64,000 nt of DNA, from NCBI GenBank assembly GCA_001724265.1, contig MEDY01000077.1:1-64000 (forward strand). The letters are read 5' to 3'. The position numbers and the translations under genes were made by a program. Shown in pieces: positions 26,617-57,500 of the stretch. The notes under the pieces were generated by a model, which ran no database searches, was not told where the DNA came from, and saw only the letters and a program-made list of their open reading frames with translations. This DNA is from Rhizaria sp. SCN 62-66 (Eukaryota). Within the stretch, counting starts at the first letter, position 1. Each line of letters begins with the position of its first letter.

Positions 26617-27548
26617 CTGTAATTTCAGAGAGTATAAATAACAGAAATTGTGTGTTAGTGGCAGTTCTATTATAGGTCTGTACTCGCACTTGTGTTGACG
26701 GATGGTGTAGCATGTGCTCTCGTGTCAAAGATCACGCAACCTCCGTGCAGTCTCCACGCACGCCAACCCGCCCAGCAAGCGCACGGACTGAAGTCCAAAT
26801 TGTTATATACTGGATGGGAATGGATTAAAATTGGTGATTTCTCATTTAACCATGTGCATATCATATTATATATTTGACACACTCGTTGGACTGCTGATTA
26901 TGTCATGATATTCCTGAGTTTTGACCACGCGCCCAACCCGCTCTCTCATCTCATCACTGCATTTCGTAGGTCTCTGCAGAGACATGCAAATCAACTGCAA
27001 CTCAACCAATCGCGTGTGCAGAGTGTATGCTGGTTGAAGGTGCATGCATTGCCGCTAGTCTGCAAAAACGGTAATCTTGCTCTCGTAAGAGCGCACTCTG
27101 CTCCATGGCAAACTTCCTCGACACCGACAAATGCCACGCTCTCTAATTGAGCACCAAAAGGTACAAACCAATTAAAACGCGGGCGCATGATGGGTCTGGT
27201 GCGCATATATTGCTTGCATGATTGTATATTTAAGCTGCGTGTTCCCTGACTGCATTTGTGGTGGCGTGAGAGGTGACTGTGAGCGAACTTCAAGTCAGCA
27301 AGGGTCAACCAAATCCAGGTTTATACTCCTCCCAATCTCCGTCACTACAAACTTCAAGTCATGTTATAATAGTAAGATACTTTATTGTATATATCTTTTG
27401 AGCTACTACCTTTGAATGTTTTCTAATCACTCATGTTCACCTGGAGTTCTTCTTCCTTCCTCGACCCCACTGTAGCACACACCCAAACTAGCTTCTTCGT
27501 ACATTTCAGAGCTTATCGAAGAAAAAGCGCACTCACTTCACTGCTCAC

Positions 27549-33500: not shown

Positions 33501-36500
33501 AGGCGACTCGGAATGTGTATGGACTGGCGTGGATGTCCCTGGCGTGAGCACAGTGACTTATTCGGATCAGCTCGCTCTCCTGCAGATTCTTGTTCGCATC
33601 GCTGAGCATTTCACCGCCGCCAGTTTTAGTTACGAGGCGACGCGTGACTATCATGGCTCGTGTATCACCATCGCAGCCGCCCTCGCGATGTTTGCGGATG
33701 CAATCATCCGCAAGATCCCCACGGACCGCACGTCACTGCTCACGCGCCACCTGCTCGGCCGCGGGTTCGCGCGCGCTATCTACGCGCAGCACTATGGCCG
33801 CGCCGTGGCCGCTGCTGCCACAGCGCGCGCTGCTGGGGATGAAGCGACTGCGAATGAGCACGAGCGTGCTGCACGTTGGTGGCTGCACGCGAGTGAGACA
33901 AACGCAAAGGGCAAGAATACGACGCATGCTTACAAGGACAAGACAGATGCTCATGGTGCCGCTGCGGAGAAGCAGCAGGGAAAGATGCTGCCGCCGTTTC
34001 AGGGCGAATGCAGCGTCACTGATAGCGAATATGCGCACGCACCCTACGGCCTTGACCTCAGCGCATATGTGCGTCAGTCTCAGGTCTGTGAGAGCGCGTT
34101 TCCTGCTGCTATGGTTGGCCGCAACGCGATTGTGAACTACTTCCGCTCCATTGCGGTGCCTGTCGAAAATCGGATTTTTTGCTGGGAGGTACTCTCCGAC
34201 GGTGTGCCGGAAGAGTCGACGACAGAGCTGTTGCGCCACATCTGCTCCGCAACGCATTTCCCTTTAACTGCTCTGACGCAATATGCGGCGTCGGATGGCG
34301 TTCCGACGCATGCGCACGCGCGTCAGTGGCACCACCTGGTTGTGCGGCAGTTCCCTGAGTTTGCGCTCTATCGTGATATTTCAGTGCACTTTAAGCTCAG
34401 CCTCCTCGCTGATCGTGGGCAGATCCCCGTGCGGCCTGATTATGATCATCGCGATGCGCGGATTGAGTTTGTGCTTGACGGTGGCGGCTTGTATTTCGAC
34501 ATGTACGCATTTGGCCGCCGGCTGGACTTATCGTCAGCGGCGGGTGTTTCATTCACCTCAGCGGCGACAGCAGCAACTCTAGGTCACTCGGTGCAAGGCT
34601 CCAAGTCTTTACTCGGGCTCAGCTCGCTTTCCTCAAGCGGTGTGTCTGGCCCACTGCGGTTGATCATCGCGCCAGACACGGTGTGTATAGGCGTTGTAAG
34701 CACTGCTGCAGCTGAGGCCGCGACGTGGGCTGCGGTCATCAACGCGCAGAAAGCAAGCACGGACACGATCAAGCATGCAATGACAGGCTCACCGAAGGTT
34801 ACTGCTGAGAACGCGTTTGATAGTGTGGATATCACGACATCGGGTGATGTGAATTTTCCATCTGTGTCAGCGACTGCTGTCGGCGCAAACCCAACTCGCG
34901 AGGCTGCAATTGCTGCAGCAGCCGTGGCGTCCGCAATTGCTGCTGCAACTGCGACCACTGCGGGTGCTGGCCCAACTGATGCTCGAGTCTCAAATCTAGC
35001 CACAGATGCAAACAGTGTGAACCCGGTCGATGCCGCGGCGAGTGCGGGTGTAGCGAGCACTGGTCAGCTTGCTAGCCATGGTGGTATTGGTGCGAGCGAT
35101 AGGGAACACAACGGCAACGGCTCAACCAGCAATCTTTGCGCATTGAATTCTGCTGGTGACACATATGTGGGCTCAGACACACCGTCACCCGGCATCAGCT
35201 CGTCGGACTCTGGTGCCGGCAACGGCGGTGACCATGAAAACGACGCCGGGTCTGGGCTGCCGCTGGCAAGGTTGGCTTCAGCAGGTGGCGACTCTCCTCG
35301 ACTGTCCCCAGAGCCCGGCCCTGTCATCGACAACTCTTTCACAACTCCGCCTCCCCCCTTGCCGATCATGCTGCTGGACACAGAGGTGAGCTCTGTACCA
35401 TATTATGAACAAGGTGACAAAGATGCATCAACGGTGCCTTTATTCGGCTCAATGGCGTTTGCGCATGGCGGTGTTTTTTCACTCCCCGGTACAGATATGG
35501 TTACGGAGACTGCCGCTCACTTCCAGACTTGGGGAAATGACAACGCCGGTAACAATGCGTCTCATAACGGCGGGCCATCATTGTCAGGATCAAAACTTTC
35601 GAGGAAGTTGTTCACCAATCGTGGTGATAATCTTGGCAGCGCCCAGATGCCTAGTTTGCGCGCGATGACTGCGTCAACCTCGGCCGCTGCCGATGTTGCC
35701 GCCACATCAGTTGCCGTTGCCGCGGCGGCTGCCAGTCGCGAGGGTGGCGGGGCTCTCTACTTGCCAGTCGCAGACTCAGAGATCTTGCTTTCATATCTCA
35801 ACGTGCCCTACCTGCGACTGCCATTATTACTGCAGTTCTTCGCGCGCGAGGACCGTGTACAGTACTTGCAGTCTATCGCTGCACAGACGTTGCTAGATGC
35901 GGCCACGTTTGAGCCTGGTGGTGTGCAAGTGCGCCCACAGTCAGCGCTTGCTCATCCGCATTCTCACGACTACTACAGTGGCGCCGCTGTCAAGTCTGTT
36001 CAGCCTCCTGCAAATGCATCAAAGACCACCGCAGCCCAGTTCACCGTTGGAGCAGACGCTCATGCGGTCCTAAGTCAAAGTGACATCTTGCCAACAGAAG
36101 AGTGGCTTGTTCCAACTTACAATCGCGCACTGCTAACTACGCCGTTTGGCCTGCTGATGAACGAACTTGTGACGTCCCCAAGTGGTGTACTTCGTCCTAT
36201 CCGTAGGATTCTGACAACGGCGCTTGATCTTCAAGCTGCAGACGCAGTGGTTGATGCGCCAACCATTGCACTGGTGCTCTACGCAATTCGCCTCGCTGGT
36301 AAAGTGAACAACTATGTCGTTTACTTGACCACTGAACTCGCGCGCGACCCATGTGCACAACGCGTGCTGGCGTTGTCAAACATTGCGGTCACACCAGCAG
36401 CGCTCGTCATGTTGCGTCGTGAAGGTGCGGCTCTGATGAAGTTGCTGACGACACGCGCGTTCGACACGCTTGGTGACTGGACAAAGCGAGTCGAGTCAGC

Positions 36501-39500
36501 CTTCGGGCGCGACTCGAACGTCACGCGGCTGAACGAGCTCACGGTATTGCTGTGCCGCCTTCAAGCGCACCGCATTGTGATTGGGAGGAACGTAGCGAGG
36601 TTTCTATACACCCCATCGTTTGCAGTTGACGTTATCTCGAGTGTAACTACAATGTGCTTGCGGTCGTCCAGCATTAGCGGTGTTGCTGCTGGCACTTGGC
36701 GTGACCGTGCAGCCTCAGCGTTAGCGGCCGCGATGGCGACTGCAGCTGCCGACACAGTTGCATACCGCAAGGACGACATTACTGTTGCTAGCATGAACGC
36801 CAACGGCAACGCTACCACTCACACAAACCCCCTGAGCACAACAGTGAACACAAACCACGCGAACCTCGATGACCTTTCATCATCGGGTGTTCCAAGCGTG
36901 TTCTCAGCTGCTGGTGCGTACGGCAGTCCTGACGGTGGCGGCTTGACCTTTACGCAGATCGTCAACTCGACCGGTCTTTGCATGCATGAGCTCGTCTTAG
37001 CTGAAGTCGTTCAATCAAAGCGCCGTGTTGTGTGCCGGTATATTGCATCACTGCCTCACGACGTCGCATGTGCAATCCTAGACGCGTGTGTGCGTATAAC
37101 GACGGGCACAGGAACCAAGGAGCACGCGCGCATGCCGGACGGCAGCCTAGTTCCGCCACTTGAGAACAACTGGGGTTTTATCCCAGGACCGCACAATCGT
37201 GGCCGGTTTAAGATCATCGACACCACCGATAACCCTGAAGTCCAAGGCCTCGCGCCAGCGCCTGCAGAGACCGATGCACAAGCAGCCGAGCAAGGGCAGC
37301 AAAGACTCGTGAGCAAGGAGAGCGCGTCCTTGGTGCTTGACAGACAACGGTGGCAGCGCCAGTGGCGGGTGCCCGAAGGCGCAACGCCGAGAGCAAAGCC
37401 TGGCCAGACCGAGTCGACTGCGACTCGCTTTTTTGTGTCTCAGTCTGGTAGCAGCGGCAGTAGCGTTGAGAGCGCTGTAGCGCCGGTTGTCGCGATTGCG
37501 GGGCCCACAGCTCCAAAGGTGAACATTGCTGGCGCCGTGGCTGCAGCGGCGCTTCACCAGCCTCTGCTGACTGTGCGGCCTAGCAGGGTTGAAGATGCCG
37601 CGACGCAATATGGTATTGCAACCCCGTGCTATCATGCGCCCATGCAGATCAAAGCTGGTGACCACAAAATCAAAGGCAAACGCAAGAGTAAGCGCAAGGA
37701 CAAATCTAAGGACAAGGGCAAAGATCTGACTGAGACTGCGACTGACAGTAAGCGTGGCTCTGCCGGAGCTGAAGCTAGGCCGTCAATGCCAGCGCCAGAC
37801 TTGGCAGCAGCACGCTCGCAGTCACTCCACCAGCAACTCTCACCTGCGTTTCTGAGCTCTATGTTTGAAGTCAAGCCGCTACTTTCGTGCCGGCAGCCAT
37901 CGTTCGAGACGCCACACTGGCGCTTTAGTCGTGACGGCAAGACGATGCAGTCGTCATCATCACTACAGCCACCATCTTTAATGGCGCATGGCACAGCGAG
38001 CGCTGCCACGGCGACTGGTGTTATTGCGCTAAGCAGCCGTGGCTCTTTAACCGGGAGTACGAGGAGGTTTTTTGCAGATGATCTTAACACTCCGCGGATG
38101 GGGGCGGCCGCTGCAACGACAAAGAGTGCCTTCAAACTGGTTTCTAAACATGCAGCTAGCGCGGTTCCTCCTGATCAGCAGCCAAGAAGTGACCAAATCC
38201 TCATGGATGCTTCCAGCAATGGCAGATCAATTGCGAAGGCTGGTGCGAATGCACCGGCCGATGACAGCGGTATTGTTATGCTGAGCCCGAGTGCAATTGA
38301 CAATGAGAGCCGGACACCGTCGCCACTTGATCTCGCGCACAGCCATGCACAGTAGCCGGCGCAATCAAGTCTGACTGAGCATGTGCATGCTGCCACTATG
38401 TCCGAGGTGGAATCAGGCTCAGATTACGAGGACGGAATCATCGAAGAAGAGGAGGAAGAAGACGAAGACGCAGACGAAAGCCATGCCCGCGAACTTCACC
38501 GTGGCTATAGTTTCTCGTTTCCGCAAGAGTCATCGAAGCCGCAGCAGCACGACCTGGTTGATTCGACAACAGCCAGTCGCGGCGCACTGTCCAGCCCTGA
38601 TCAGGAGAAACTGACCCCGTTTGGTATGGGCATTGACGACTGTTGCGATCCGTATGACCCGTTCTTCGATCCCGAAGACGGCGAAGACTCTGAGGACGAG
38701 AGCTTTGCGTCGCTGTACATGCACCCCAACATTCACGACACGACTCACCACGGAATTGCGACGTATCTAGGCCTTGGTATGCCTAAGAATGCTGATAGCA
38801 GCGGCTCTCGCAGCTCTGCTCCAAAGGCACATTGTCCGACGCTGCGGCCTCCAGACATCCCAGTCGCACGTGGCGGCGCTTCGACCCTTGAGATCAACCT
38901 CCAGACCGGTGAGCTGACAGTGAAGGTCCGCCACATCAAGGCTCTCCCGCCCGCGTACCATGCCACCGCGCGCGCCTTGTTCGGCACGGCAGAGCTGCAG
39001 TGTGCCACTCTGTCGTCTGCGCAACACCGCGAACTGCTTCACCTTGTCGGCAGGCATCATTTTGCGGCGAAGTGGACCCCGGACCCCACAGTGTGCCCGC
39101 ACACATGTCTCCGACCGTACTCACGCAGCGCGCTGACTGCCGCGGAAGAGTGGCTAGAGCCAGTATTGGATCCAGTGATTAACGCACGTGGTTCTGCGTT
39201 TTCTGACTTGCGCGAGTACGTTCTCATGATGCCGACCGAGACTCTCTCGCCCACAGCGAATGTCGCGAAGCTAGAGCTGCTGCATCCCTCGAAGGGGCTT
39301 TGGAAGGAGATTTACGCGATCAAGGACCGCAGCACAGTCCATGTATACGACGTATTCTCGCATGGCCGTCGTCGCCACAGGCGGCTCACCTTTTGCACGG
39401 ATAACCGCCTGAGTCTGCGCGACATGGACGCGTCAACAGCGAGCCGCGATGAGCCGTGGGCTGACTGGGAGCGCCATTCTGCCGGTGACCCATCTGCGAC

Positions 39501-42500
39501 GCTAAACAATACGGTCACGATCACATATGTTCGCGACCACAAGTTGCGGACGAACTTTAGCGGGACGTATGAGCGCCACGTGGAGCCTGAGGCATTACAG
39601 GGCGTCTTACCTGCAGCGCTTGTTGACGCATATGTGTTTTGGCAAGATGAGCATGACACGATCCGCGGCTATCCCGTCACAATCACGCATCCGTTGACGT
39701 ATCTGTACATCCGCATTTTGCCTGCGCACAGTGCGGCGAGCAACAAGGTTTCCGGGGGCATTGGAGCCGGCGCCATCGTTGCGCGCCGCATCATGACTCC
39801 GGCGCAGACGCGGGCATTCACGCGCACAGCTGATGCGGAGGCCAAGGCTGCGGCCGCAGCGGCCACAGCTGCGGCCGCAGCTGCGGCGACTGCTCTTGCA
39901 GCATGTAGGAAGGATGGCAAGAGCAAAAGTAAGAGCGGCTCTGCCTCTGCGAGTGATAACAAACCTCCAGCCGCAGCCACTGCGACGACTGCTGAGACTG
40001 CGATTAATGTCGTTTTAGCTCCTGCAGCAACCGCTGAGGAGACAACTGAGTCCTCGAGCACTGACGACGAAAGCGAAGACAGTGAACCCGGTGCGTACCC
40101 GCGTGGTAACACGCGGCGTCGTTCTAACTCGCGTGTTCGGGCACGGTCGCGCTCACGCGCGCGCTCACATGCCGGCCGCAACGTTTCTCAGGGCCCGTCG
40201 CAGCCCGCAACAGCTCCGCCGGGCCACACCGCGGCTGCTGTGCAACAACAGCAGCAGCAGTTAGGTGATACTGGTGATGCTGTAGATGTTGATCTTGACA
40301 GCACTCTTGATGAAGGCGTGTCCTATTCTAACGAGGTTTTCTTGGTTAACTCTCTGTACGCTCCTCGCAATAGTTTTCTGTACAGTCTCGTGAGTGTGTT
40401 GACAAGGATTGAGCGTATGGGATACATCCTCGTTTGGACACGCACGCGTCCTCCGGAGCTCGACACTTACTTTAGCGACAACGACAACAATCACGCGGAC
40501 GACGCTGCTGGCAAAGGCGCTCACTCAGACGCGAGTGCAAGTGTGAACACAGCTGGGAAGACAGAGCCCACGACTCCGTCGATTGATCACATTGCTTTGC
40601 CGCGCCTGCAGCTATCGTTTAGTGCGCGCCGCAACCATCACGGTGAGCTGCGGCTATACTGCCGCGAGCATCCCGAATTCTTCATCTCCAACTTCCGTTC
40701 CGAAGGATTGTATCAACTGCTTCGCGGCATCCCACACTCGCTGCTGCTCTCGACCAACCACCACAGCTACCACTTGCTTGTCCCTCTAGTCCGGCTGTAC
40801 CGGCCGCAGATCGCATGCTGTCCATTTTCGACGGAGCTAGTGCTCTCATATGCGCGCACAGATAGCTTTTTTGGCTCACAGACGCGGTTTGTGATGTATC
40901 CTGTGCATACGACTCTGAGCTTCCTCTTCACACCAACGTTAGCATCCGGCTTATATCTACTGGCCTTGCGCCTATTCCACCGTCGTCTAGATGAGGCTGT
41001 TGCGTTGATTGCATCAACAGCAACCGATGAGCGTCTGCGCAGTGATGAGCGCGCAATTTTTGCGATGTTAGGCGAGATTAGCAACGATCACCACCCTGAC
41101 ACACACGCGTGCCGTCTGCTTCTTTCGATTGCCACGATGGACTCGGACATTAAGTGGCCCTGGTCGCTGTCGACAGAGTATCACCATTACGTTAAAAAGC
41201 TGCAGCACGTCTCCGCTGTGTGCCGCCTTACGACTAGCGCAGAGTTGCTCATTGGCGAGCGAGTAACGGCAGTGCCGACGATCACACGCGCTGGCGACAT
41301 TGCGAACGCATCCGTGAACACCGGCAATGACGCGCCATTGATGGTTCTACGCAATCTTGCTACTCAACTATACTTGCGCTCAGTCAAGGAGCCTCTGGCT
41401 TCGTGTAGGAGAAAGTACGACGCCAACTGCGGCCTAACTTTCGAGGTGTTGCGTCACCGGTCGAGTGACAACGATCCTGATCCTGAGATTGTTGCGATCA
41501 AGTCGCCGTTCAATGAGTACCTCGCACTGCCAAAGCTCTACGGGTATTTACATGAAGACGCCGGAGCGTACACCGTTGAAAACGCGACCAACAATCTTAA
41601 AGACGATGAGTCTGACAGTGACGATGATGAGAGCGACGCCCAGTTTGCGACACTGTTTCTCACTGGGGCCTTCACTGATAACTTTGAAGCGCGGAATCAA
41701 AAGATCAGGAAAAGCCAGACGACGAAGCCATGGCAGGATGAGAGCGTTGATGTCACCGATTACAACGCGTCTCTTAGTGAAGAAGGGCGCTTTGAGTGGA
41801 TTAATCCCCTTGGAGGCACGATTCCTGATCGCTGCCGCTTTTTGCTTCACCACATTGGTAGTGACAGCAATGGCTACCCTGTTGTTGCACTGCAAGGTCT
41901 CCGCAATGATGGCAGTGGTCATAGCAGGCCGAGCTATCTTGCTTTCACTCGCAGGCGGCTTGATTTAACCGCAGCGCGCGCCAGCCAGCCCAGTGCATCC
42001 GCTGCATCTGCTCCTGCTTCAGGTGGCGGCAGCAACAATAACGATGGCGATAATAGTTCCGACTACAGCGGGAGTTACAACGCTGCTGTTACTGCGCGTG
42101 AGTCGGACGAAGCATTGGTTGTGATCTCGCACAAGCTTGACAACTCCGCGCTGTTTCTGTTTGCGCCTCGCTCCTACGTTGTGCCACCTCCGGCAATTGT
42201 ACGCAACCGCTTCGCGTATCTCAAGGCTGTTTGCAGCGGACAAAGCAGTGTTGCAGTTGTCTATGACAGTTGCCCGACGCTGGAGCTTGCCAAAGACGAG
42301 ATCTTTACGGGCGACGTAATCAGCAAAGGCGCGTGGATTGCTGGAGTTCATTGTGCCGCCACTGCGACCGGGGACACCGAAGCACTTGCGGATCGCAGGT
42401 TTAAGAGTATAAGCAGCAAAACGGGCATCTACGCGCCCAAGGCGTCTTGTGAGCGGGAAGCGGCTATGGAATCTCCCGAGTGGTACCTGCGCCCCGACAC

Positions 42501-45500
42501 ACTCACGATCTCGCGAAACAACAACCTCATTGTGAACACCAGCACCGGACCTGTCATCAACACTGACACTGACTCTGATACGCGAGCCAAACATTCTGGC
42601 ATAACGGTGTGTAGTCCATCAAGTGTACGTGCTGTTCCTGAGACGCCGACGCTTCCGCTGGGTGAGTTCCTCGGACCGACTCCGTTACACTCCCCGCTAG
42701 AGAGGCATCCCGAGCAGCAAGAAGACGTGCGTACTATTGCTGGCTTTTACTCAGAGTCGATGTCTGACTCTGTCGTTGAGTCTCTAGCGAGTTCAAGGTC
42801 TGTCACCTCTGACACAGACGCAAGATCTGAGATTGACGCTGACTCAGACTCAGTCGCCGAATCGGACACCACTGTCGCGAGTTATACGTCGAGCATTGTC
42901 GGCTTGCATGCGTCCGCAGTCGCCAATCCAGCTTTCCAGCGCGGCCTAACTTCCCTCGTCCCGCCACTCTCTCGCGCTCGGCTCAGTCGGCTTCCGCGCC
43001 CGTCGTGGCCGGCGTATGCTGACGGCACGTTTCTCACTGCGTCCGCTGCTGTATTAAAGCGACTGACTCTGAAGCCCACGCTGGCAAGTGCATTCAGGCA
43101 AGGTGAAGCTGTGACTGAATACTTGCTCCAGAGCCGGTTCCACACGGCGAGTCTGGCGAACAGGTTTCAAACCGATGCGGGCTACGGATTCCTGTCCTTG
43201 TACGACATGTTGAGGGGTGCGACCAAGCAAAGCGTGACTGACCGCAACAACACGCGCACTGTCGCGCTGTTAGTGATGCTTGAACTACCGTTAATGTACG
43301 CACAGGGCCCGTTGGAGTCACTGTTGCATATCATTGCAGTCAACCCCCAGATTGGACCCTTGTTGCCACAGTACGACCCAGAGGCCGGTGACTTAGGTCT
43401 TGGGGATATCAACACAAGTGAAGTTGGAACTTCTGATACAAAGGCTACATTACCAGCGCCAAATGTCACAACAGCGACAAGTGCGGCGCCGGCAGCATCA
43501 GTTCCCGAGACGAGTGCGACTCGACATGGACGCTCCCGGTCACCAGTTCACATTGGCTCTCGAGGAAGCCCGCTATCGCAGCCACAGCCTCGGCAATCGT
43601 CAACACACACTCGTCACACACAAGGCATTGGTGCTGTTGCAATCAATCCACAAGACGCGTTCACGCGTCCTGCGCCGCCTGGCACGTTTCCCGTTGTTTC
43701 TGGTTCCAACACACTAGCTCCGCCGACACGCGGTGCGCAAGGCCTGCGTCAGCGCCCCACGCCGCTGGTCATATCTCCATACGGTGGTGCAACTAAGGGG
43801 GCAAAGAGCGTGACGGCAGCAGCAACTCCCGCATCAGTCGGAAAGCCCGTCCACGCACGAAGTGCGACGGTCGCACCAACGCCGTCACGGCTGACGTACC
43901 CTGTGATCACTGCCACTGGTGTGGGCGACGTGACCGCCGGACTCGGCGACCATCGCGTGCTTTCAGTCATTCCTATTACGCACAACACAGCGCGCGCATC
44001 CCCACCCGTGTCGTACACGTACAGCTTTTTCCGTGCGATCCGCGCCGTTCTGATCGCGGAGCACCGGCGGGGCGGGCTGATGTGGCCTCGTTCCTGGGAC
44101 CAGACGCCGCGCTGGCCGCAGCCGCCGACGTCGGTGCTTGTGGGGTGGGCGCGTGGCGCGCTTGATGTTACTGCAACTGATGCATTAACACCCACAGAGC
44201 CCACAGCAGCGGCAGCTGCAGCTGCAGCAGTGGTCCAGGTCGGAGCCCCGGAGGCGCTGGTAGCAACAGCAGCCGCTGAAAAGCTTGTTGGTGAAGAAGC
44301 ATCTAGGCCTGCGGGCTCGGGTTTACTGCGAGTGCGGCCATCATTCAAGCGCAGAGGCACGTATCTTGCGTGTACTTGTAAGGGCCTGACAAAGCCCGCA
44401 GGTAACGGACTACGGTACGCGGTTGCGGTAAGCTCTGCACCGTTTCAAAGCGCGCTGCCTGCTGTTGACGCAACCACGTTGGCCGAAGACACTGTTAAAC
44501 AGACGGTTGGCTCTAAGGCCACGGGTAGCTCGAAGTTGAAAGGGCTGTTGATCGACCAACGCTCAGTAGCAGCTTCTGATCTTAGCTTACCTGCAAGTCT
44601 CGGTGCATTGCAAGCGCAGCAGCAGCAACAGGCACAGCAGCTGCAGGAGCCACAGCAACAAGAACAGCAACAGTCACCGCAGAGCATGTTAGAAACGGCA
44701 ATGCCGTTGTTGCAACCGCAGCACTCCGCACCGATGACGCCTCCACCGGGGTCTCAGACGCCGAACACAGCAGCTGTCGCTCCTCTCAGCGGCGGCTCTG
44801 GTGATAGCAGTGGTTCGCAATCGCCTGCGTTGTCATTGCAGCGATCGCGCTCCATCACAATTGCAGAACTTGCGACGATTAACAAATCGCCGTTGCCAGA
44901 TGAGTATGATGCAACTGGCGATCCGCTAGCCCCCATCGCGACAATATGCACAAGCACTGTGACGCCGTCACCTGATGTGCCCGGTCGTCATTCTGGTCTA
45001 CATCCCGCAGTTGTCACTGCGGCGCCAGCTCCCAGCATTAACATCGACGCTGCTTTCAAACACAGCGCTGCAGCAGCGGGCGCACCTGCCGCCCAGAGCG
45101 ATATCAAGGGCGAGTTTGGCTCGGTCGCGGCGACCAGCGGTGGGAGCAGCGGCGGCAGCAGGGCGCTGTGGGTGAACCGCACCACGCGCTCTGCCATTCG
45201 CCCCGTGCAATCTCTCGTCAATCTCGTCGAGCTCACAGTAACCAAAGGTGACCGCCGTGGCCGCACGCCTAAGCACGTTGGGACGATTGACTGGGGTCAG
45301 CAATCGGGCGACGGCGATGTTGAGAGCACGCCCAGCGACGGCAGTGAGGGTGAGAGTGAAAGCGAGAGTGGCCGTCAGCGTGCACGTGAAGGTGAAGGCG
45401 AGTGTGCCTACTGCGCTCTTCGTCGGGAGCGTGCTCGTCAACGCCACGCCAAGCGCGCCAGTCTTAGCGTTGGTGATCTCTCCGCAGGCGCCGTCACAAC

Positions 45501-48500
45501 GCACCCAGACTCCGTCTCTGAGTCTACTACGAGCACCGATATTGACGCCAGCGCTGACGTCAGTAGCGGCGCAGACCGTGTTGTGACCCCTGTCCCTGCA
45601 AGCAGTGAAGAAACTCCGCGAGCTGCTGGCTCTCACGTTCGCAGCCACGCCAGCAGTAGTAGCAGTGTGAGCCACGGCCATGCTGAAAAGATTGCCGCCA
45701 CAGTGTCGCAGCGCCAGTCCATCTCAGACCTGCTCATCACTGCGCAGTATTGCGACATTCTTGCCCCAATGGGGTCCGACACGAGCTGCAGGCAGCGTTT
45801 GTACCCGCTGCCCTCGTGTTGGCCACAGTGGCCACCTGCGCCTCCGGTGGCGTCGCCGGCGAGCACGTCAGGAGGCACTAAGATCGGATCGGGTCGGCCG
45901 ACTGTGAGCAAGTATAACACGCTGTACTCGCGCTCTAGAGACTTGTTTCCAATGGAGTCAGCAGGGAATAGCGACGCCGCTGCTGGCACGTTTACTGCAG
46001 AGCTTAGTACGCACTTGGACTGCTCCCACGGCCCACACGTTCTGAGTCAAGTGATCGACTCGCAGTATCAGACTGACGACCCGAATAGAGTCTCGCTGCG
46101 AATGCCTCACCACTGTCACGGTGCGCTCACCACCACGGGGCTGATTGTGCTGGGCAGTGCGCCTGTAACTGACGACGACGCACGCGCTCTCGTGACAACG
46201 CCGTTATCCGTGCTGAACTTGGAAACACTCGTCGAAACGATGGTGCCTTTTAACTGTAGTCATCATGTGAAGCATGTCGAATCCACAATTGATCCAAGTC
46301 ATTCGTATGTTGTTCATGCAAATGTTACGAAGGCCGATAGCGAGTCTGACAGAGAAAGCACGAACGACGAGAGTGCTTTTGTGTCGCCACTTACCAGCGA
46401 CCTCAGCGACCCAAGTAGTGATGAGAGGAGTCTCACATCTATTAAGGTGATGAAGCACCAAAGTGGAAGGTAGTTCATCCTCAAGGCTGGGTCTTGCGGT
46501 GTTCACTTCAGCACACACATTGCGCCTCATATCTCGCGTTTTCTTGCGCGCATCCTCGCGCACCCAGTCTCCAAGTACCCTATGTCGCGCGCACTAGTGC
46601 AGTTCTGGGCATCTGACTCGGCGGCGCTAAACGCGACGACACCATCTGCATTTGCACACCTCAGGAGTGCGCATGCGTCTGCCTCACAGTCACAGGGTCG
46701 GGCATTATTAGCCAAGAAGACAGCAACGTCAACAGTCCCTCTGAAGCTTGGCTCTCCTGTTGATGCAAATGCCACGACTGCCGGCCCCAAGGTGGGCGTG
46801 AACGTTGGAACTCACTGCCCCTCGATTGGTGCTGACAAAGAGGGTGACGCAAGTGGCGGTCTCTTTGGGGGCTCGAGTTTCATCAAGGGATTCAGTAAGC
46901 GTGAAGTGACTGAGCTCGCAACCGCGATGGTCATTCGCTCAGCTCATCTTCAAATCCAGCAGGTGCATGCCAAGTCACAATCGCGAACGCAACAGAAGCA
47001 CGTCGGCAAACTAGAGCAAGAGAAGAAACAGAACTGCCTCCGCGGTTTAGAGCTAGCAGCGCAGAGCAAGTACCGCCGCGCGTTCATTGCTCTCGCGCAG
47101 CGATACCTGTTTCTAGATGCACTCATTACGCGTTTGGAGGTTGTGCGCCGCGCGGACCGTGACTTTGTCGCTCGTGGTATGCGCTATGTGTGCCAGGTCA
47201 TTAACGCTGTGCCGATGGAGGGTGTCACGCCGCCAACGGAGAGTGAGATTGATGAAGACATCACCGCCAATCTTGCGAATTTGTCGACGGCATATGCCAA
47301 GAATACGGATCAGAGCGGCGCTGAGACCCTCGCGCAGTCTGACCTTGCTTACATGAGTAGCGGCGCAAGTGCGAGCAGTGCGACTGACAGCAGCAAGCTT
47401 GTTAGCGACGGTGAGCAAGAGAACACGGAGACGTGCCGTGTGAACCGCCGCGACCGTATGACGGCGGACCGCGTTCCCGACACGTTCTCCAATCTTGAGC
47501 GTCTTTGTTACTGCTTGCAGCGTGCCGGTGGTCTCGAGACTAGCCTATCGTTTACGCAGATTGTCAGTCTCTTTCTCTCCGTCGACGTCGTTGCAGAAAT
47601 CCAGCGCATCAACCCATTTGCAACACTCGAAAGTGTTCAACATGTGGTGCTGGTGACGCAGCTTGTGATGCTTAAGACAAACCGCATAGGGCAGGTGCAC
47701 CGCTGTATTGCCGAGATCAAACGCATTTTCACGCTCTTTCACGCATTGTGCCCGAGCATGTTTGTGGAAATGCTGCGTGCAGTGCACACAAACACGCTGC
47801 CAGCAGAAGCGTTTTCTGTTACTACAACCAACGTGAGCAGTAGTAGTCCTGCGGCTGATACTGCAGCCACACCGTCCGACTCTAGAAAGACTACTGCTGC
47901 CGAGACTTGTGGCGCTGCGAAGACGGATGGAGAGCTGGCGGGTAGCAAGGTAACTGAGACAGAGGCTGAGGCTGGTTTACGTACACCGTTGACGGTGTCC
48001 CCAGTGACTACGAACAGCACTGGCACTCTGTCTAGTAACGCCGTCGTTGCGAGCCCGCCCCAGGTGTTCCCGTTTGCCCCGAGTCCGCCGTTATCGACGC
48101 CGCGGTCGCGCCACGCGTTCATGTTTCCTCCGAACGAGAGCACCAATAGTGCGAACGCATCAGCGCCTGTGCTCGGAGCGTTAAGTGTTGAGGACGCAAT
48201 GCTGACTGGTTTGCCACCGAGGCCGCCGCAAGCATCTGTGCCTCGTTCTCGTATCACAACTGGGGCGCCGTTAGCTTCAAGGCAGCAGAATCAACAACAA
48301 CAGCCTCAACAACAGCAGCAGCAGCCGTAGCAGCCGCAAGCTCAGCCGACGGCAACTGAGAGTTCTGAGCAAGACGATGAGCAGCTCCACAAACAGCAGC
48401 TGCAACAGCAACAGCAAGTCACGTTGATGCTGTCGTCAGAGGCGACGGTCATCTTACTCAGTGCTATCGCCGATCTTTATCAGGCTAGTGGTCGCATTGC

Positions 48501-51500
48501 TGCTGCACTAACTGAGACAAAGGCGTACTTCAAGCCTGTTGACCCAAGCGACAGCCAGGTTCGAGTGAAGCCGTTTGCTCCAGATACCAAGTTGCACAAG
48601 CATGGATCTGCGTTATCAAGCTCGAGCTTAAGCTCGGGCAGCGGACTTGCATCGCAGACGGCCGAGGAGAGTAAGCGTCCCTGTGAGTGGGTGTTTGATC
48701 CTGCCTACTTAGTATTTGAGTACATGCGCAACATCTCGCTCCGTGACGCTCAAGTATCATGCGTTGATAACTTTCTGTTGACGCGCGACGACAAGACAAC
48801 GGTTCCATCAGGCCTGGCACTTAAGTCCCCGCTCTATACGAACCCTCGGAACGCGAAATCCAGCTCGTGCAGTCACGTGAACTCTCTTATGTCGAGTGCG
48901 GGCGAAATTCAAAACTCAATGAGTGATTCTGCAACTACTTCGACAGACTTGAGCACCTCATTGATTGTTGACCGTGGTGTCAATCCCCGCTGGGCGGCAA
49001 AGTGCCCGATTGTTTTTCCGCCGGCCCTAGCCGCTGCTGCGCTATCGCTGTCGTCATCGACGCCACGATCGCAAATACGGCAGCTAATCATGGGTCAAGG
49101 CAAGACCACGATCATCAGCCCGCTCCTTGCGATCCGCCTGAGCGACGGTGCACGCCTATGCGTTGTAATGACACCTCCGGCGCTGCTGCCGCACACGCGC
49201 GAAGTGCTGCGTGTTGCCTTCGGCAATATTCTCGGCAAGCGCACAGTTGCGTTCGACTGCTCGCGCCGCGAAGTCATGCGGCCGGAGACGTTAAGGAAGC
49301 TTGAGATTGCGCGGGTGGCGCGCTCAGTCGTGATCACAACGCCGAGCGACGTTAAGTCCCTGATGCTGAAGCTGATCGACATCGCAGTCCAGCTTGTTGA
49401 GTACCTGCGTAACCAAGAGATTGCTGTTATCGTTGCGACTGGTCAGATGCCGTCTCTGGCGACCGGCTCGTTCGGACACCTTGGAGTGCAAGTCGCGAGT
49501 GATAAGTACGCGCATGTTGCAACGGCGCTCCAACACGCGACAACGAGAAAGAGGTCTGGGGCTGCTGAGACACAGACAGCTCAGTCGCAGATGCAACCGC
49601 AGTTGCATGCCCCGCTTGCGCAACGTGGTCTGCGGACTGTCAGCACGGGACTTAGAGACATCGAGGAGCACGGCGAGTATAGCCCGAGCACCATCAACTC
49701 GGCCGCTGCTGAGACTGGCAGCGTCGTGCGCCCGATGCACGAGGAAGAAGAGGAAGACGGTGTTGTTGCGACCGGTGAGTGTCTTAGTCCAGGACATTTT
49801 TCCTCAACATCAGCGCCGCATGCAACAGGTTTCGGGACCGGGAGCACTCCTAACAACTACACTACTCTCACTCAGGCAGGGACGTACAGCAACATGGCTC
49901 CGTACGCGAGCAACGCCGATAGCGAAGGCGTTGCGGCAATCGCAAATACGGCTGCTGCTGTTGTCAACGCTTCGACTGCAACCACTGATCCGACCGATGC
50001 GACGAGTCGTGCTCCGAGCCCCAGAACGGTTGCTCGCTCAGCTGCGGCGACTTTGGCGGCTGCGGCGGCGGCGGCCAAGTGGCGCAAACGCGGTGGTGAG
50101 ACTGTGGCCGCCGATGACGACGGCATTGAAGTTGTGACTTCTGTGGTCAACCCCAACTACACCTTCGATAACTTAGACACTAACGTCAAGGTCGACACGG
50201 CGGCAACACCTAAGAAGCCAGAAAGGGAAGTCGTCGTCCAGACAACCGAGATCACTAGCCCTGGCTGGAAGAACGTGTTCCCTCCTCTTCCGCGCTCTCT
50301 CGAGCCCCTGTACACCGAGGCAACCACTATTGCGCGCGTCTTATCTCTTTTCAAGCACAGTACACTCATCATGGACGAGGTTGATCTTCTGCTTCACCCA
50401 CTCAAGTCAGAACTCAACTTCCCTCTTGGCAGCGCGAATGCGATTGAGGCAGCGCCGCACCGGTGGTCTTTGCCGGCTCACCTCATCGACGCAGTGTTTT
50501 TTACCTCAGTCGGCAGACTGCCGCTCTCATTCCGCCAGTCCTCGCGCGCAGCTGCAGTACAAACTGCGATCAAGGCGGAGGCCGAGGCAGGCGTGAAGCA
50601 GATGGTGCTGCAGTCCTCCCCGCACCTCGTCCTCTTAGACGTCGCTTACTATCACGCGAAGCTGAAGCCCCTGTTCGTTGAGTGGCTGATCTTGTACTTG
50701 GAGCGCGCGGGGATCCCGTTAGATTTATTCTCCGTGAATGACATGACAGCGTTGTTTATGCAAGGCTGCAAGTTTGCGCGGTCAGAGTGTGCGTACACGT
50801 GTGTTCATTCGTTCTCTGGGTTCAGCTCTGTTGTTGCTGATAGCATTGACGCTGCAAGCACAGTGGCCCCTGTGTCAAGCGCCGTAGGCGTAGCGAGTGC
50901 CCCACAGCAACAAACGGAGCAGTTGCAGCGATTGCAGCAGCAGAACACTGTACAGCAGCAGCTGCATCGTCCAACGTACTTGCGTGCACACACTGTGCCC
51001 ACGGCTTCTGGTCCAGTTTCCCCTCAGCCTGAGACGCGGACTGCGTCTGTGGCGGCGAGCGACGGGGAAAGCGGCCACTCGCCGCGGTCCGAGAATGCCG
51101 CTGTTTCTGACGTGAGCATGACCAGTGATCGTGACAACAACGATAACGAGAACAATAACGACGCGAACAATGCGATTGCGGGTGTTGCAGCAAATGTTTG
51201 CGAGAGTGAGGACTCAGAGTCGCGAACCCGGCCCAGCACGGAAAGCTCTGATAGCTCGGTGAGTACTGACGCGGAACAGCAAAGGCAACTTGACCACGGG
51301 GGTGGTCTATGTGCGGTGTGCTCCGTGGTGCTAACACAACTTAGGTGCCGCAACCTCGCTCCGCAGACATCTCACGCGAATAACGGTGCCAATGGCGGCA
51401 GCAAGAGCACCGGCAACAGCAATGAAAGTTGCGGCAAGAACCCAAGCGCATGCCTTTCAAGACGGCTCAACCTAACCGCGCACCGACTTGCATTGGTCCC

Positions 51501-54500
51501 GTTTAAGTACCGGACGCTGCTGCGGCTTGGCTTTGACTGGCTGAACCAATACCTGCCTCACGTATTGCAAAAAATCAACCGTATTACATACGGTCTCATT
51601 ACCAGCAACAACACGAACGCTAACATGTTCAGCACAAACACGTATCCTACCTCCAACAATGGCAACGCAAACTCGCAAGGTGCTGCTGTTGACAGATTGC
51701 CGCTTGCCACTGCATCGCGCCTGGCACTGGCAGTGCCTTTCATTGGCAAAGACGTGCCTTCTCGGTCAAGTGAGTTCTCGCATCCTGACATCACGATCGG
51801 ACTTACACTGCTTGCTTACCGCTATGATGGTCTCCGTGGCAGTGACTTGGTGAAGCTTATCACGGGTTTGCAGAGCGCTGTGGCAACTGAGGCAGGTCCG
51901 CCCGACGCACGGCTTAGCGCGTCTTTATATAGCGCATGGGTTGCGGATGCGGGGGGTCGTGTGATGACTAAGTCGCGGAGCATTGCTGAGAAATCAAGCT
52001 GTATAGTTAAGGCAAGTCGTGAATGCCCGAGGGTGCACCCTGACGAGTGCGGAGCTTGCAGCTCGGCTGGCAGCGATACGGCTTCATCGTGTAGTGCGGC
52101 TGTGAGTCGGACCACAAACGTAACTGCCAGTCACGACGAGATTGATGTCAACGCCGAAGTCAGCGCTGATGAGGAGCTTGAAAGCTACTGCAATGATTCC
52201 GGATTTTCCAGTACCAACGAGGAGACAAACGTAGGTGCCCGCAGTTGTATTGCAGATCAGGTCCGCTCCCTTGCTACGCCCACTGTTCTTCCACTACGTC
52301 TGCTGAAGCCCACGCACACCTCGCAGATGACGACCTTGTTTGCGCTGTTACGCAGGTACCCAGAGGCTATCACACATTATCTCGAGACATTCGTCTTTCC
52401 CCGGCATCTGCCGTATTCTGGCAGCAAGATTGCTTCTTCGGGACAGGATCTCGGCTCTGAGATGCTGTTTGACGCGCGCATCGGTTACTCTGGCACGCCG
52501 TCAATGCTGATCCCACGTGAGATGGGCGCGTGTTACTATCAGACCGGGCAGACGGCGAACACGATCGCCACGCTCACGTCACCGGACAGCGCTGATGTCG
52601 ATATTCTGCCGTCTAACTGGACTGCGTTGTCGATTCTTGCCCGCGTTGCGAAGACAAGCCGCTACCACGCACTTATCGACACTGGCGCGCTCATCACAGG
52701 ACTAAACAACCAGCAAGCTGCAGAGGCTCTGTTGGCGCTTGGTCTTGCGCGTTTTGACGGTGTTGTGTTCTTCAGTCAGGCCGATGTGCCGATGGTGCTA
52801 CACCGCAAGCACGCGCGTGTTGTGCCTTTTGCACAGTGCGGTTTGCTCCCGCACCGTCGCTTTACGTTTTATGACCAAGTCCACACGACTGGCGCCGACA
52901 TCATGCACCCGCTTGGTGCCGCCGCGGTGCAGACGTTGGGCAAAGACATGACGTTCCGCGACCTCGCACAGGGCGCTTATCGCATGCGTGGACTGGGCAA
53001 AGGTCAGAGAGTCTGTTTGTATGTCATTCCTGAAGTTCAAGCGTTGATTATGCGGCAGATTGAAGCATGTGTGCTTTCAAAGCTAGTCAAAAACGAAGCT
53101 CAAACGATAGGGCCGGAGTCAACTTTGATGTCTACATCTGCGGCAGCACTTGTGCCGCTCTCTGGTTCTGACGCGAAGTGTGATTGCGTTTGTGCGCTTG
53201 CGCCATTGGCAAACCACTATGCAAAGTGTTTCTTCTCATCTTCTTCTGGCTTCAACAAGACTAAGCCTGTTGGCGCAGATCCTCATGTAAACGTTGACAA
53301 AAGCAGTGCAGCTCCGAGCGGCACTCCTGTGAAGTGCCCGCATGCTCGTGAGCACACTCAGCTATGCCTGCTAGCAATCCTAGCCTGGTCGTTCCTGAAC
53401 CTTCTCGAATCAGAGGTGCTTCAGTTCAGGCAGCTATGCTTGCAGTCAATTGCGGGCATTTACCGCAAGAGCGCATTCGGCATTGTGCAACGGTTCGTAG
53501 CCAAAGCATTCTCGTCTCGCCGTGGTGGCCAAGGCAACGGCCGGGCCGGGAAAGATGAGACACATTCACCTGACCTGCAAATCAACAAGAGTGGTGCGAG
53601 CGATATTCGTGCTGCTGTGCCCGCGAGCACTGCTCCCAGCACTGATAGGCCGCCAGGTGCTGTCGCCTCTTACACGCGTAAGCACACGTACACGACCGTG
53701 GTTCCACCAAGCACAGCTTTGGCTGCCACACATGCTGGCAGTACCATCACGAACATGAGTGATGACAGCAGCGAAGACGACTGCCCCAGTCTTTCGACGG
53801 TTAGTAAAGCGCTGGCGTTGTTGTGTGACCCCGTCTCCTATCAGGTTGATACCGAGTTCACAATCATGCCGCCACTACCAGCGGGCATGCAGGAGCACCT
53901 AAGTCTTGCAGCGTCAGTGCTGAGTGAGCAAGATCAAGAGCAGATTACGGCATTATTGACTGTCTTACGCGCCGTCACACTGCGCGCACTTAGCGCCGAC
54001 GGCAGCTCTGACAGTAGCCCAAGCGCAGACACAGCCACAAATGCGAGCGCAGTTGAGTCCCTAGCCCCACCACAGGCTGGGAGGGTCCCCGGTAGCGACA
54101 GTGTTGAGGCTATTGTTACTGACGCTGCTCCGACCGAAGCAGAGTCGTCAGACACGGGCGTGTTTGCAGGCACCGCGCCCGATGAAGATGCCACACTCGC
54201 ACTTCGGAGGGCGATTGCAACCGCGGTGAGTGCTGCGACAGCGCCGTACACTTTGCTTGCTCCTAAAGTTATCCGGGCTGCGACAGCGGCGTACAGTCCT
54301 GTCGTAAGTACGAATACGGGCGCTGCCGACACTAACGACGGTCAGCCGCCTCGCTCTGACGCCGTGGGCGCTTACACAGGTCCTGACTTTGCGTCTCTTG
54401 CGCTATCCCTTGAAGCCGTGCAAGTCCGCGTTTCATAGCGCGAGAGCGACCGAGAGTCGCAGCAAACCCGTGAGGTGGAGCAAGAGACCGAGGAGGACCG

Positions 54501-57500
54501 CCGCCGCGAGCGCGAGAGCAATGCGCCCGTAAGAGCTGCGGTGGTGCCGTGGAAGCTGCGCCGCCTCGCAGTGCCCGAGGGCTGGAGTGGGGTGTTCTAC
54601 CCGCTATCCGAGCTTAAGCTGGGTGTCAACGATGTGTCGCTGCGGTTTCCGCCGTATATCTTTGTCTCGCGCAACTACTACGATGCGCCGAACACAGGCG
54701 TTCACCGCAGCAGTAGCAGCATTAACAATGGCGAAAGCCGCAGCGGGGCGCAAGGCAGATCCACAGGAGACGACGGCTTTGGTGGTGTGAGTGCAGACAA
54801 CGTCACAAACAGCGGCGACTTGACGATGGGTGGCGAGCCCGCTGGTGTTGTGAACAGCATCAACGCGGTGTTGCCGCCTGTCACCATGGTGCTTGATGTG
54901 CTGTATGACACTGCTGTTGTTCAAGAGCGGTTTCACCCGACGTTCAACAACCCGTTTGTGCTGACGCCGATGGCGCTTGAGCTGCTCGGCGAGCCCTTGC
55001 TGTGCGGTGTATGGCGTGAGATGGAGAAAATGTGGGCGATTAACGAACAAGACGCCATGAATAATGAGAACGTCGACAGCAGTAAAGTCATCAGTGGTGA
55101 AGCTGTGGTTCACCCGCAAGTTCCTGCAAGTGTCACAACGAACGCTCGAAGTGTTCTTAAGGCAAGAAAGCACAAGAAGCAGGCAAAAGCGCGGATCACC
55201 ACAGCTGCTAGCAAGAGTGTCACTGAAGGCGGCCTAACTTCCAGCTCTTCTGCCTCCAACAGCAGCTTCCCCGACCTGAGCTCAATTACGGCGCTGCTCT
55301 CGCGCATTTGCCGCCGTGTTGGGCTGCTGCGAGACGAGCAGCCCACCCTCGCCGGACGGCGCATGCTGCTCGAAGTTGTGTCACTCTTTGACCTTAACGG
55401 CGACGGGCTTCTTGAACTCGATGAGCTGCGCTATATGCTGCAAGCAATGACCGGTGTTGAGCACACCGAACGCGCATATACGAGCATGCTCCTGCAGTTT
55501 TTCCGGCAAAACCCTGTCGATTCACTGTGCGAGTTCCCAGCGCTCGCGGACCCTGCCGTGATTGCACAGCTTGCCGATCCGACCAACAAAACCGTGCCCC
55601 GTGCCCTGAGCGCGCCGTACACGGTTTCTCAGGCGCACTTGCTGCTCGGGCAAGGTGCGGCCCGCGGCCGCCACCGTGGACGTCGCTTTGTTGTGGTGTC
55701 ACTTGCAGAGGCGGAAACGATCTACCGCGCGATTCACACGCGCTCGGCGCAAGATCTGCCAATCATTCAAGAAATCTGCGCAGACATCTCCAAGAGTATC
55801 AACAGCAGCACCGACAACAGCGGAAGCGTCCCGGTAAAGATCCGCGCCGTCGGCATCGCCCTGCGTCAGCTATCGCCGGATGCGTTCCCCGCTGTGGCCG
55901 CGTCGAAGCACATGCCTCCGGCAGCGCCGAACCAGCTCAACACGGTGCATCAGTGTCTCCGTCTGTTTAACGGCGAGTTGCAGTTCAGCGATCAAGAGAT
56001 CACTGCTTTGTTCCGCGCGCTTGTGCCGAACCCACCGTCGCGCATCCGTGCCTTTTTCGCCGCAGTCACCGCACACCGCAAGCTTGCGACACGGAGTCTG
56101 ATTGCACAGTCTCCTGTGGCGCAGCTCTGGGCCTGGGCCGGCCCGCTCGCGCACTTGCGCATGCGACTTTCCCTTGCGAAACTCGCACACCACGCCCGCA
56201 TGCGTGGACTTACTGTGGAAGCGATGTTCACCGCGTTCAATAGCAGCGGCACTGGGCTGTTGAGCGCGAGCGAAGTGTTGACGCTGTGGGCGTGGCTCGG
56301 GATTGGCTGCTTAAGGACTGACGGTAAAGGCAAAGTGTGGCTTCAAACGCAACCCGGAACGGATCCCACTGCTTGCAGCATCGGGAAAGTGGCGCCAACA
56401 GTGATTGCAACAGATGCGGTGTCATCAACGACCACAGAAAATCAGCCTACCGTGACTGTGGCTTGTGGAAGCTACAGCACCGCAAAGAGCGCTGCTGACA
56501 CGGTCATTACAGCGAGCATGCCTCAACCTGACCGTAAGGGTGCAACGGCGAGTGAAAAGCAGAGGAAGCGCAATAAAGAGTCGCGCACCAGGGTGACCGA
56601 GTTAGACATCCGCTCTGAAGCGCTGCGTGTGCTTGAAGTCATGAAGCTCTTTGACAAGGACTGCGATGGGCAGGTCTCGCTTGACGAGTTTAAGCAAATG
56701 CTCTGTGTCGGTGAGTCGACGCTGAGTAGTGCAACGAGCGGGCTGGTTGGCAGAACAGTTTCCTTGTTACCGCCTCCGCAGCCGTCGTATGACGCTGAGG
56801 TGCACGCGCCGCGGCGCGTCACGGCGGCCGAGATGCAGATGGCATCTGCAGCGAGGTCGCGGTTACTGTCGAAGGCAGAGGGTGGCTACGACGACAGCGA
56901 GAATACGTGTATGTGCTTGTCTGTAGAGCCTCGCGAATACGCTTCGGCTGCGCCGCAGTTTGCAGTTGCAACAACGGGAGCAAAGGCTGCTGCAAAGGCT
57001 GGAAGCATATCCGCTGTAGCTGGTGACGGCTCTGGGCACTACGCACCAAGCTCATCGTCCTCCTCCTCATCATCATCTTCCTCGTCGTCATCGCTGTCGA
57101 CAATGGCGCCACTGGGGTCCTCGGCGGCTCGACCGGCGCTTACTGCAGCAGTGATGAGTGGAACGAGCGCGAGCGGCACAAACAGTGCTGCAAGCAAGGA
57201 TGACGGATCAGCGGTGGTCAAACCGACCGAGTCGGTTGCAAGTGCGACTACAACTGCTGACACAACTATGCCAACGACTGACAAGACGAACTCCCACGTC
57301 GAGTTTGACAACAGTGTACTTCCGATTAAAACTGTCACGATTGGCATCAAGACAGTTGCACAGCTGTGCAAGGAACTTGCCATGCGCCGCAGCATCACCG
57401 CCGACGCCGAGTCGCACATGTCCGCGCTTGCTGTGCAGCACAGGCTGTACTTGCAGTCGCTGCGCGTGATGATTGCGACGCTAATTGGCGGTGTGTCGCC

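Follow-up and report, generated by a model that had tools for sequence, protein, structure and literature searches.

The first 64,000 nucleotides of contig MEDY01000077.1 (forward strand; assembly GCA_001724265.1, deposited as Rhizaria sp. SCN 62-66), referred to here as the window, carry on their + strand a gene of the DUF3638/DUF3645 family whose reading frame is crossed by seven TAG triplets, and the question considered here is whether these are translated and as which amino acid. From 33478 to the end of the window, the + strand frame read through TAG contains 10,174 codons with six TAG, no TAA, and no TGA, a stretch that the standard code divides into pieces of 1,625, 2,705, 618, 2,035, 1,319, about 160, and at least 1,705 codons. 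The longest open reading frame (ORF) in the window grows from 2,705 codons under the standard code to more than 10,174 codons with TAG as sense. An upstream frame (28398 to 33392) carries the seventh TAG, TAG 1, and is spliced to 33503 by the removal of an intron; the spliced stretch from 28398 to 63999 (35.5 kb) contains 11,826 codons with seven TAG, no TAA, no TGA, and no frameshift. The frame is still open where the window stops, and the gene as a whole exceeds 11,826 codons.

All of the features of this gene lie on the + strand. A probable upstream exon of the same gene occupies 27492 to 28344, where an open frame makes an in-frame junction to 28471 across a spliceosomal intron of 126 nt that is low in G+C (28345 to 28470; GTGTGT...TTTTAG). 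The next exon (28471 to 33378) encodes a conserved N-terminal block (…RTPQRAGTCYFRC…) and includes TAG 1. It is followed by a T-rich spliceosomal intron of 124 nt (33379 to 33502; GTACGC...GTGCGTAG), the excision of which restores the frame, and by a giant exon (33503 to 64000) that contains TAG 2 to TAG 7 and is open at the end of the window. The giant exon encodes a DUF3638 domain, the P-loop region, 3' of four TAGs (49051 to 49393; Pfam E = 2.7e-21, 76.4 bits against a cut-off of 31), a DUF3645 domain (51715 to 51808; E = 6.1e-13, 48.3 bits against a cut-off of 25), and, 3' of five TAGs, an EF-hand (approximately 56632 to 56703; EF-hand_1, E = 2.7e-12, above the curated cut-off). The gene belongs to the DUF3638/DUF3645 family, as both Pfam domains occur in order and exceed their gathering scores. 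Like other giant P-loop proteins of this family in eukaryotes, it has both domains above cut-off and conserved blocks colinear with those of 80 metagenomic homologues; unlike them, it also has EF-hands and in-frame TAGs, and low-complexity inserts make it much longer than the rest of the family. Between 24100 and 27490, upstream of the probable exon, G+C-rich and G+C-poor blocks alternate, suggesting further short exons of the giant gene or of another gene on either strand.

The seven TAGs lie in diverse contexts (an asterisk marks the TAG in the translations below). TAG 1 (32079 to 32081; LIEAV*KKIVR) is directly 3' of a conserved peptidase-like block and is the sole TAG in an alignable column. 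TAG 2 (38353 to 38355; HSHAQ*PAQSS) is unchanged in the X2 and X3 contig 36542-38988, and the independent assembly of run X2 (record 2) covers it with no differences. TAG 3 (46471 to 46473) reads HQSGR*FILKAG, TAG 5 (54436 to 54438) reads VRVS*RESDRE, and TAG 6 (58396 to 58398) reads EDGKS*DSASS. An earlier note on this DNA, made from the letters alone, had reported an in-frame TAG within a CAG/CAA polyglutamine tract, and this is confirmed as TAG 4 (48328 to 48330), which lies in the Gln/Pro tract QQQQQQP*QPQAQP, encoded on the + strand as CAA CAA CAG CAG CAG CAG CCG TAG CAG CCG CAA GCT CAG CCG. A 9-nt unit is repeated in tandem here, CAGCAGCCG (48319 to 48327) being followed by TAGCAGCCG (48328 to 48336), and the TAG belongs to the latter copy. 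The glutamine-like contexts that had been read by eye at TAG 2 (AQ*PAQ) and TAG 7 (P*SP near QSP) are also present, as HAQ*PAQ at 38353 and, within QAQLP*SPPPGAQSP (58882 to 58884), as LP*SP at 58882 with QSP nine codons on. Many of the joints and loose ends around 48290 to 48420 in the assemblies compared were poly-CAG contigs from other organisms and were disregarded.

In public collections the gene is held in pieces. Standard-code gene calling has split it into separate "proteins" ending at TAG 3, TAG 4, and TAG 5, namely, the ENA-sourced protein P0004 (45178 to 46470, terminating at TAG 3), P0003 (46582 to 48327, to TAG 4), and the database gene call P0005 (48427 to 54435, terminating at TAG 5). 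A reading of the TAGs as 3' splice sites was rejected: within the gene, low G+C occurs only at the known intron and at 46235 to 46332 and 53014 to 53093, and most of the TAGs are not preceded by a pyrimidine tract, unlike the four real 3' splice sites in the window.

Evidence on the probable translation of TAG

The composition of stops in the frame departs from chance. An unconstrained frame of this length and composition would be predicted to contain 130 TAG, 63 TAA, and 49 TGA, compared with the 7, 0, and 0 that are seen, and the other two frames of the spliced stretch contain between 51 and 436 of each stop type. Under random nonsense mutation, the TAG share would be 51 to 55%, so that the probability of all seven stops being TAG is 0.009 to 0.015.

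Conserved family sequence continues beyond five of the TAGs. With the complete product as query, tblastn returned 532 high-scoring segment pairs (HSPs) from 80 homologous metagenomic loci, arranged in colinear conserved blocks at residues 800 to 1400, 1800 to 2800, 3400 to 4400, 6200 to 8400, and 9000 to 9400, and family homology therefore lies behind each of TAG 1 to TAG 5. The same loci served as a control: most have ORFs of 4,000 to 5,000 codons under the standard code, and in none of the 80 does reading TAG as sense extend the longest ORF by 1.5-fold or more.

Selection on the frame was assessed with a relative of the window strain, approximately 5 to 7% divergent (approximately 93% identical), found in an unrelated run (X6) and compared over window positions 32000 to 51999. 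The comparison lists 40 of 997 differences, none of them at a TAG, and says nothing of the codons that the relative has at those sites. Third codon positions account for 26 of 39 listed differences (p = 2e-5), and synonymous differences outnumber nonsynonymous ones by 27 to 12. Thirty of the 39 fall within 480 nt 3' of TAG 4, where third positions make up 21 of the 30. Each of the six coding indels is a multiple of 3, the sole 1-nt indel being in an intron, at 33436. The comparison reveals purifying selection in this frame just past TAG 4.

The recognizable ends of neighboring genes point the same way. Four of the six are TGA, two are TAA, and none is TAG; for this small sample, the chance of finding no TAG terminator is about 0.15 if the TAG share is assumed to be a quarter to a third. 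On the - strand, the cGMP-dependent protein kinase gene ends …NWDADF followed by TAA (19179 to 19181), and a TAA also terminates the OGG1-like gene (13933 to 13935). Because the kinase gene shows TAA to be a working stop, the pattern is that of a TAG-only change, as in NCBI translation table 15.

Several observations weigh against reading the TAGs as ordinary sense codons. The evidence derives entirely from a single gene on a single contig, and six of the seven TAGs (all but TAG 1) lie in lineage-specific, low-complexity linkers that align with no homologue. The TAG density of the giant gene, 0.59 per 1,000 codons, is approximately 5% of the neutral expectation, and the other 4,716 confidently coding codons of the window contain no TAG, where 2.8 would be expected at the rate of the giant gene. 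With 7 TAG, 333 CAG, and 195 CAA codons in the giant gene, UAG is approximately 50 times rarer than CAG, unlike in the taxa that use table 15; in phyllopharyngean ciliates with a reassigned UAG, the codon occurs in 78 to 91% of genes (PMC11687900). This rarity sets the window apart from all of the cases described in the two papers drawn on here (PMC5304391, PMC11687900). The 64-kb window also contains no tRNA genes, no eRF1 gene, and no Rfam families. Either the rarity of UAG warns of some other process at work in the single gene examined, or it marks a young or inefficient reassignment.

The TAGs themselves are real and in frame, no other stop type occurs among them, and the coding sequence to either side is under selection and belongs to a single gene. 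Good support for the claim of the earlier note that TAG does not act as a stop here comes from the exclusive use of TAG, the absence of frameshifts, the homology downstream, the selection on the frame, and the TAA and TGA terminators of other genes. Within the limits of what one gene can support, TAG is very probably translated in this organism.

The amino acid that TAG would specify

The earlier note considered glutamine the most parsimonious meaning of UAG, and the composition of the surrounding protein supports that part of its argument. A naive-Bayes classifier using five residues on each side of the TAGs places Gln first by 9.45 nats, a margin met by 32% of seven-site sets of true Gln codons and by no more than 0.3% of sets for any other residue. 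The numbers of Gln neighbors at TAG 1 to TAG 7 are 0, 2, 1, 7, 1, 0, and 2, so that three of the seven sites carry the glutamine signal. The repeat at TAG 4 adds to it: of 13 near-matches to this 18-nt context in other parts of the gene, 10 are centered on CAG or CAA. TAG 6 has a single look-alike nucleotide context (with GAC), and the other five sites have none.

Orthologous columns are informative at one site. Segments extending 120 residues to either side of each TAG were compared with the 80 loci and gave 12 HSPs at TAG 1 (7 spanning the site), 2 at TAG 5 (none spanning), and none at the other sites. Around TAG 3 and TAG 4, all three matches in the protein collection that was queried were the window's own ORF pieces (100% identity), and there is thus no close orthologue in it to align at either site. 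In the full HMMER search, 39 of 148 nonself representatives span TAG 1. The phmmer multiple alignment placed this region in insert columns, leaving one usable row, and was replaced by pairwise BLASTP, from which the residues were taken. Opposite TAG 1 these are E in eight, K in seven, R in six, D in five, M in three, and H in two; I, S, V, T, G, Q, and A occur once each, and one sequence has a gap. None of the 39 has Leu, Tyr, or Trp, so that by alignment these three are disfavored, and Glu and Lys would remain as candidates. The position appears to be a variable, mostly charged surface site that could accept Gln and leans mildly toward Glu or Lys. The earlier note had held that Leu could not be excluded by eye; it is now disfavored by this column.

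A number of results count against glutamine in particular. The only alignable column, which is variable and polar, has Gln in 1 of 39 sequences. The two closest homologues (50% and 38% identity) have I and M opposite TAG 1, and the seven alignments from the loci have K, E, L, E, E, E, and K. A test of the ordered neighbors (-1, +1), which had no power, ranked Gln eighth at -2.0 nats and gave it no support. The glutamine-like contexts are themselves weakened as evidence because CAG to TAG is the commonest one-step route to this triplet, and TAGs would be expected at former Gln codons regardless of what they mean. This confounding was modeled by treating transitions as five times likelier than transversions and comparing Gln with Glu, Lys, Leu, Ser, Tyr, and Trp. 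The likelihood ratio for Gln falls from 6 to 13 at 10% tolerance of nonsynonymous change to 3.5 to 6 at 20%, about 2 at 50%, and 1 at 100%. The 12 nonsynonymous and 27 synonymous differences in the X6 comparison suggest a tolerance near 15 to 20%.

The strongest competitor, itself unlikely, is that TAG is sense for some other residue, with Glu or Lys the most plausible, followed by Leu, Ser, and Tyr. E, K, R, and D together account for 26 of the 39 residues opposite TAG 1, compared with the single Q; the column from the loci is similar; and at TAG 5 and TAG 6, both of which lie in acidic text, the residues that the per-site classifier ranks highest are E and D. Nuclear codes in which UAG specifies Leu, Ser, or Glu also exist (PMC5304391, PMC11687900). 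Against another residue, seven-site sets of E, K, L, S, Y, or W reach the margin observed for Gln in no more than 0.2% of draws, the likelihood ratio still favors Gln by approximately 3.5 to 13 at tolerances of 10 to 20%, about the level that the X6 comparison suggests, and L, Y, and W do not occur opposite TAG 1.

The case for glutamine as the most parsimonious reading is therefore moderately supported, the composition test and the TAG 4 repeat standing in its favor and the neighbor test, the TAG 1 column, and the CAG-origin confounding standing against it. The estimate combines the likelihood ratio from the contexts with a prior from the literature, in which a reassigned UAG most often means Gln, and it is lowered by the mild counterevidence at TAG 1. 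If TAG is sense, Gln is the best guess and a fairly probable one, Glu would be a decidedly lesser prospect, and other residues would divide what is left. The joint claim that TAG is translated in this organism and specifies glutamine is, at most, slightly more likely than not.

In the reading that is favored here, UAG would be decoded as an amino acid, UAA and UGA would still terminate translation, and the seven TAGs would be ordinary though rare sense codons of the giant DUF3638/DUF3645 gene. The meaning of UAG would most likely be glutamine, much as in NCBI table 15. Judging from known reassignments, decoding would involve either a tRNA whose anticodon is CUA or a near-cognate tRNA-Gln(CUG) that has been strengthened, along with a release factor eRF1 that has lost its affinity for UAG.

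Improbable alternatives: readthrough, editing, and gene decay

Programmed or context-dependent readthrough of the murine leukemia virus (MuLV) or tobacco mosaic virus (TMV) type, or a code in which UAG has a dual meaning, would explain the TAGs without full reassignment. The low density of TAG and its confinement to one long, presumably weakly expressed gene would fit inefficient decoding, and near-cognate tRNA-Gln is a natural UAG suppressor, which also speaks for readthrough. The 100 nt 3' of TAG 3 (46474 to 46573, + strand) are predicted to fold at -29.9 kcal/mol (z = -3.29), with 1 of 200 shuffled sequences folding as well. Seven successive readthrough events, however, would leave almost no full-length protein unless each was efficient. 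Neither a recurrent 3' context nor a recurrent downstream structure was found: the +4 bases after TAG 1 to TAG 7 are A, C, T, C, C, G, and T, with no recurrent CAR-YYA motif, and the z scores of the downstream 100-nt folds are -0.54, 1.04, -3.29, 0.57, 0.86, -1.25, and 2.26, with only TAG 3 below -2. TAG also ends none of the six neighboring genes that have recognizable ends. Readthrough is considered improbable.

Slightly less probable still is that TAG is a stop in the genome and that the mRNA is edited, either from U to C, giving CAG (Gln), or from adenosine to inosine (A to I), giving UGG (Trp). Editing would account for both the restriction of the stops to TAG and their rarity, and A-to-I editing corrects premature stops in filamentous fungi. 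Seven edited stops within one gene would be unusual, and no nuclear U-to-C editing system of such a kind is known. For the A-to-I route, Trp is found in 0 of 39 sequences opposite TAG 1, and none of 4,000 seven-site Trp sets reaches the margin obtained for Gln, in agreement with the judgment of the earlier note that Trp produced by A-to-I editing fits poorly.

A dead or dying pseudogene, or TAGs created by assembly or sequencing errors, could draw on the location of most TAGs in unconstrained linkers, on coverage of approximately 4 to 7x in the runs compared with the window, and on the possibility that the selection seen against the X6 relative predates a recent death of the gene, but mixed stops, frameshifts, and relaxed selection were not what was found, and this explanation is very improbable. 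All seven stops are TAG (p of about 0.01), and the 35.5 kb contain no frameshift, where seven nonsense hits would imply about 150 neutral substitutions with accompanying indels. As for errors, the assembly of another run is identical across TAG 2, the ENA assembly is identical as far as TAG 3, and the same strain recurs with no differences in runs from 2016-2017 and 2024 that belong to other studies.

Known code changes, neighboring genes, and the source organism

Reassignment of UAG alone to Gln has been described for Iotanema spirale (PMC5304391) and for Protocruzia tuzeti, Hartmannula sinica, and Trochilia petrani (PMC11687900), and split meanings of UAG and UAA form a short list of cases described only since 2017 (PMC5304391, PMC11687900). 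Changes in tRNA(CUA) and eRF1 are also reported for those taxa. The window resembles the taxa that use table 15 in that UAG alone is in frame, UAA and UGA terminate, and several UAG contexts are glutamine-like. It differs from Iotanema and the ciliates in its high G+C content (approximately 57%), long contigs, and conventional introns of 90 to 260 nt, and it is not recognizably ciliate or fornicate. Since UAG-to-Gln nuclear codes are already known, the present one would be a further case in another lineage.

Other codes share the separation of UAG from UAA. UAG specifies Leu in metagenome-assembled genomes of phyllopharyngean ciliates from TARA and Ser in Scotinosphaera (PMC11687900), and the rhizarian exLh has a UAG-to-Leu change with 384 in-frame UAGs in 71 genes, approximately 5 per gene (PMC5304391). 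As in these organisms, UAA and UGA stay stops in the window; unlike in exLh and the TARA genomes, its UAG contexts are not Leu-like and Leu is absent from the 39 sequences opposite TAG 1. Codes in which UAR specifies Gln occur in the aphelid Amoeboaphelidium protococcarum, ulvophytes, diplomonads, oxymonads, and many ciliates (PMC5304391, PMC11687900). The window would share with these codes, which are of the table 6 type, a change from stop to Gln; it differs from them in that TAA terminates the cGMP-dependent kinase and OGG1-like genes and in that the giant gene contains no in-frame TAA, where approximately four should appear if the ratio of TAA to CAA matched that of TAG to CAG. Among the matches listed in full-text literature searches, there was no report of UAG reassignment in a wastewater eukaryote.

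One possible interpretation, put forward tentatively, is that the window records an early or incomplete reassignment of UAG in a G+C-rich, unsampled, nonciliate protist lineage. Decoding of UAG would then suffice for seven sites in one essential-looking giant gene, and the codon would still be held at approximately 5% of its neutral frequency and be absent from neighboring genes. If so, this would be a natural example of the intermediate debated by the codon-capture and ambiguous-intermediate models, and the very low density of UAG would show reassignment occurring before the codon had spread through the genome. Nuclear genetic-code changes are rare, and another independent lineage would help to gauge how often they arise. 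The lineage in question is G+C rich, bears introns, is common in wastewater reactors, and has no close sequenced relatives; metagenome annotations of such eukaryotes would be wrong because standard gene callers split their genes at TAG.

Aphelids occur in algal bioreactors, and the DNA of the window is present in bioreactor and wastewater metagenome runs of several studies. Runs X4 and X5 are labeled RNA-Seq but were judged to be probably DNA, and the X6 contig spans the intron unspliced. The metagenome scan that yielded the 80 homologous loci gave a best identity of 50% in the conserved domain, and the Atlas search returned broad eukaryote clusters only.

The genes neighboring the giant gene in the window encode V-ATPase subunit c, a RhoGAP, a WD40 protein, an OGG1-like glycosylase, a cGMP-dependent protein kinase, and an Mpv17-like protein. 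V-ATPase subunit c is 88% identical to an EukProt entry filed under the transcriptome of the dinoflagellate Yihiella yeosuensis, which may be a culture contaminant; other matches do not exceed 81%, and the named ones are spread across Rhizaria, ciliates, and green algae. Identities of 69 to 72% to Lotharella, Norrisiella, and Spongospora (Rhizaria) provide a very weak taxonomic hint. The best matches of the cGMP-dependent kinase are at most 37% identical over at least 39% of the query.

Coding sequence in the window has a G+C content of approximately 57 to 62%, compared with 25 to 36% for introns and spacers. The four introns (294 to 557 and 19800 to 19889 on the - strand and 28345 to 28470 and 33379 to 33502 on the + strand) are T-rich and approximately 90 to 260 nt long, and three of them have the 5' site GTACG; those in two neighboring genes have GTACGT 5' sites and TTTAG 3' sites. 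The contrast in G+C between introns and exons could aid the binning and gene modeling of this organism.

Two observations concern the relatives of the giant gene. A scan of prokaryote genomes gave as its sole match a stretch of the Legionella jamestowniensis chromosome (L081:10001-10483) encoding sequence 29% identical to the C-terminal conserved region of the giant DUF3645-family protein, and this stretch may be a eukaryote-like gene acquired by Legionella. In four of the 80 homologous loci (L023, L078, L079, and L080), the longest ORF gains at least 1.5-fold when TGA is read as sense, from 1,159 to 1,864 codons in L078, and these gains could reflect hosts that recode TGA or simply introns.

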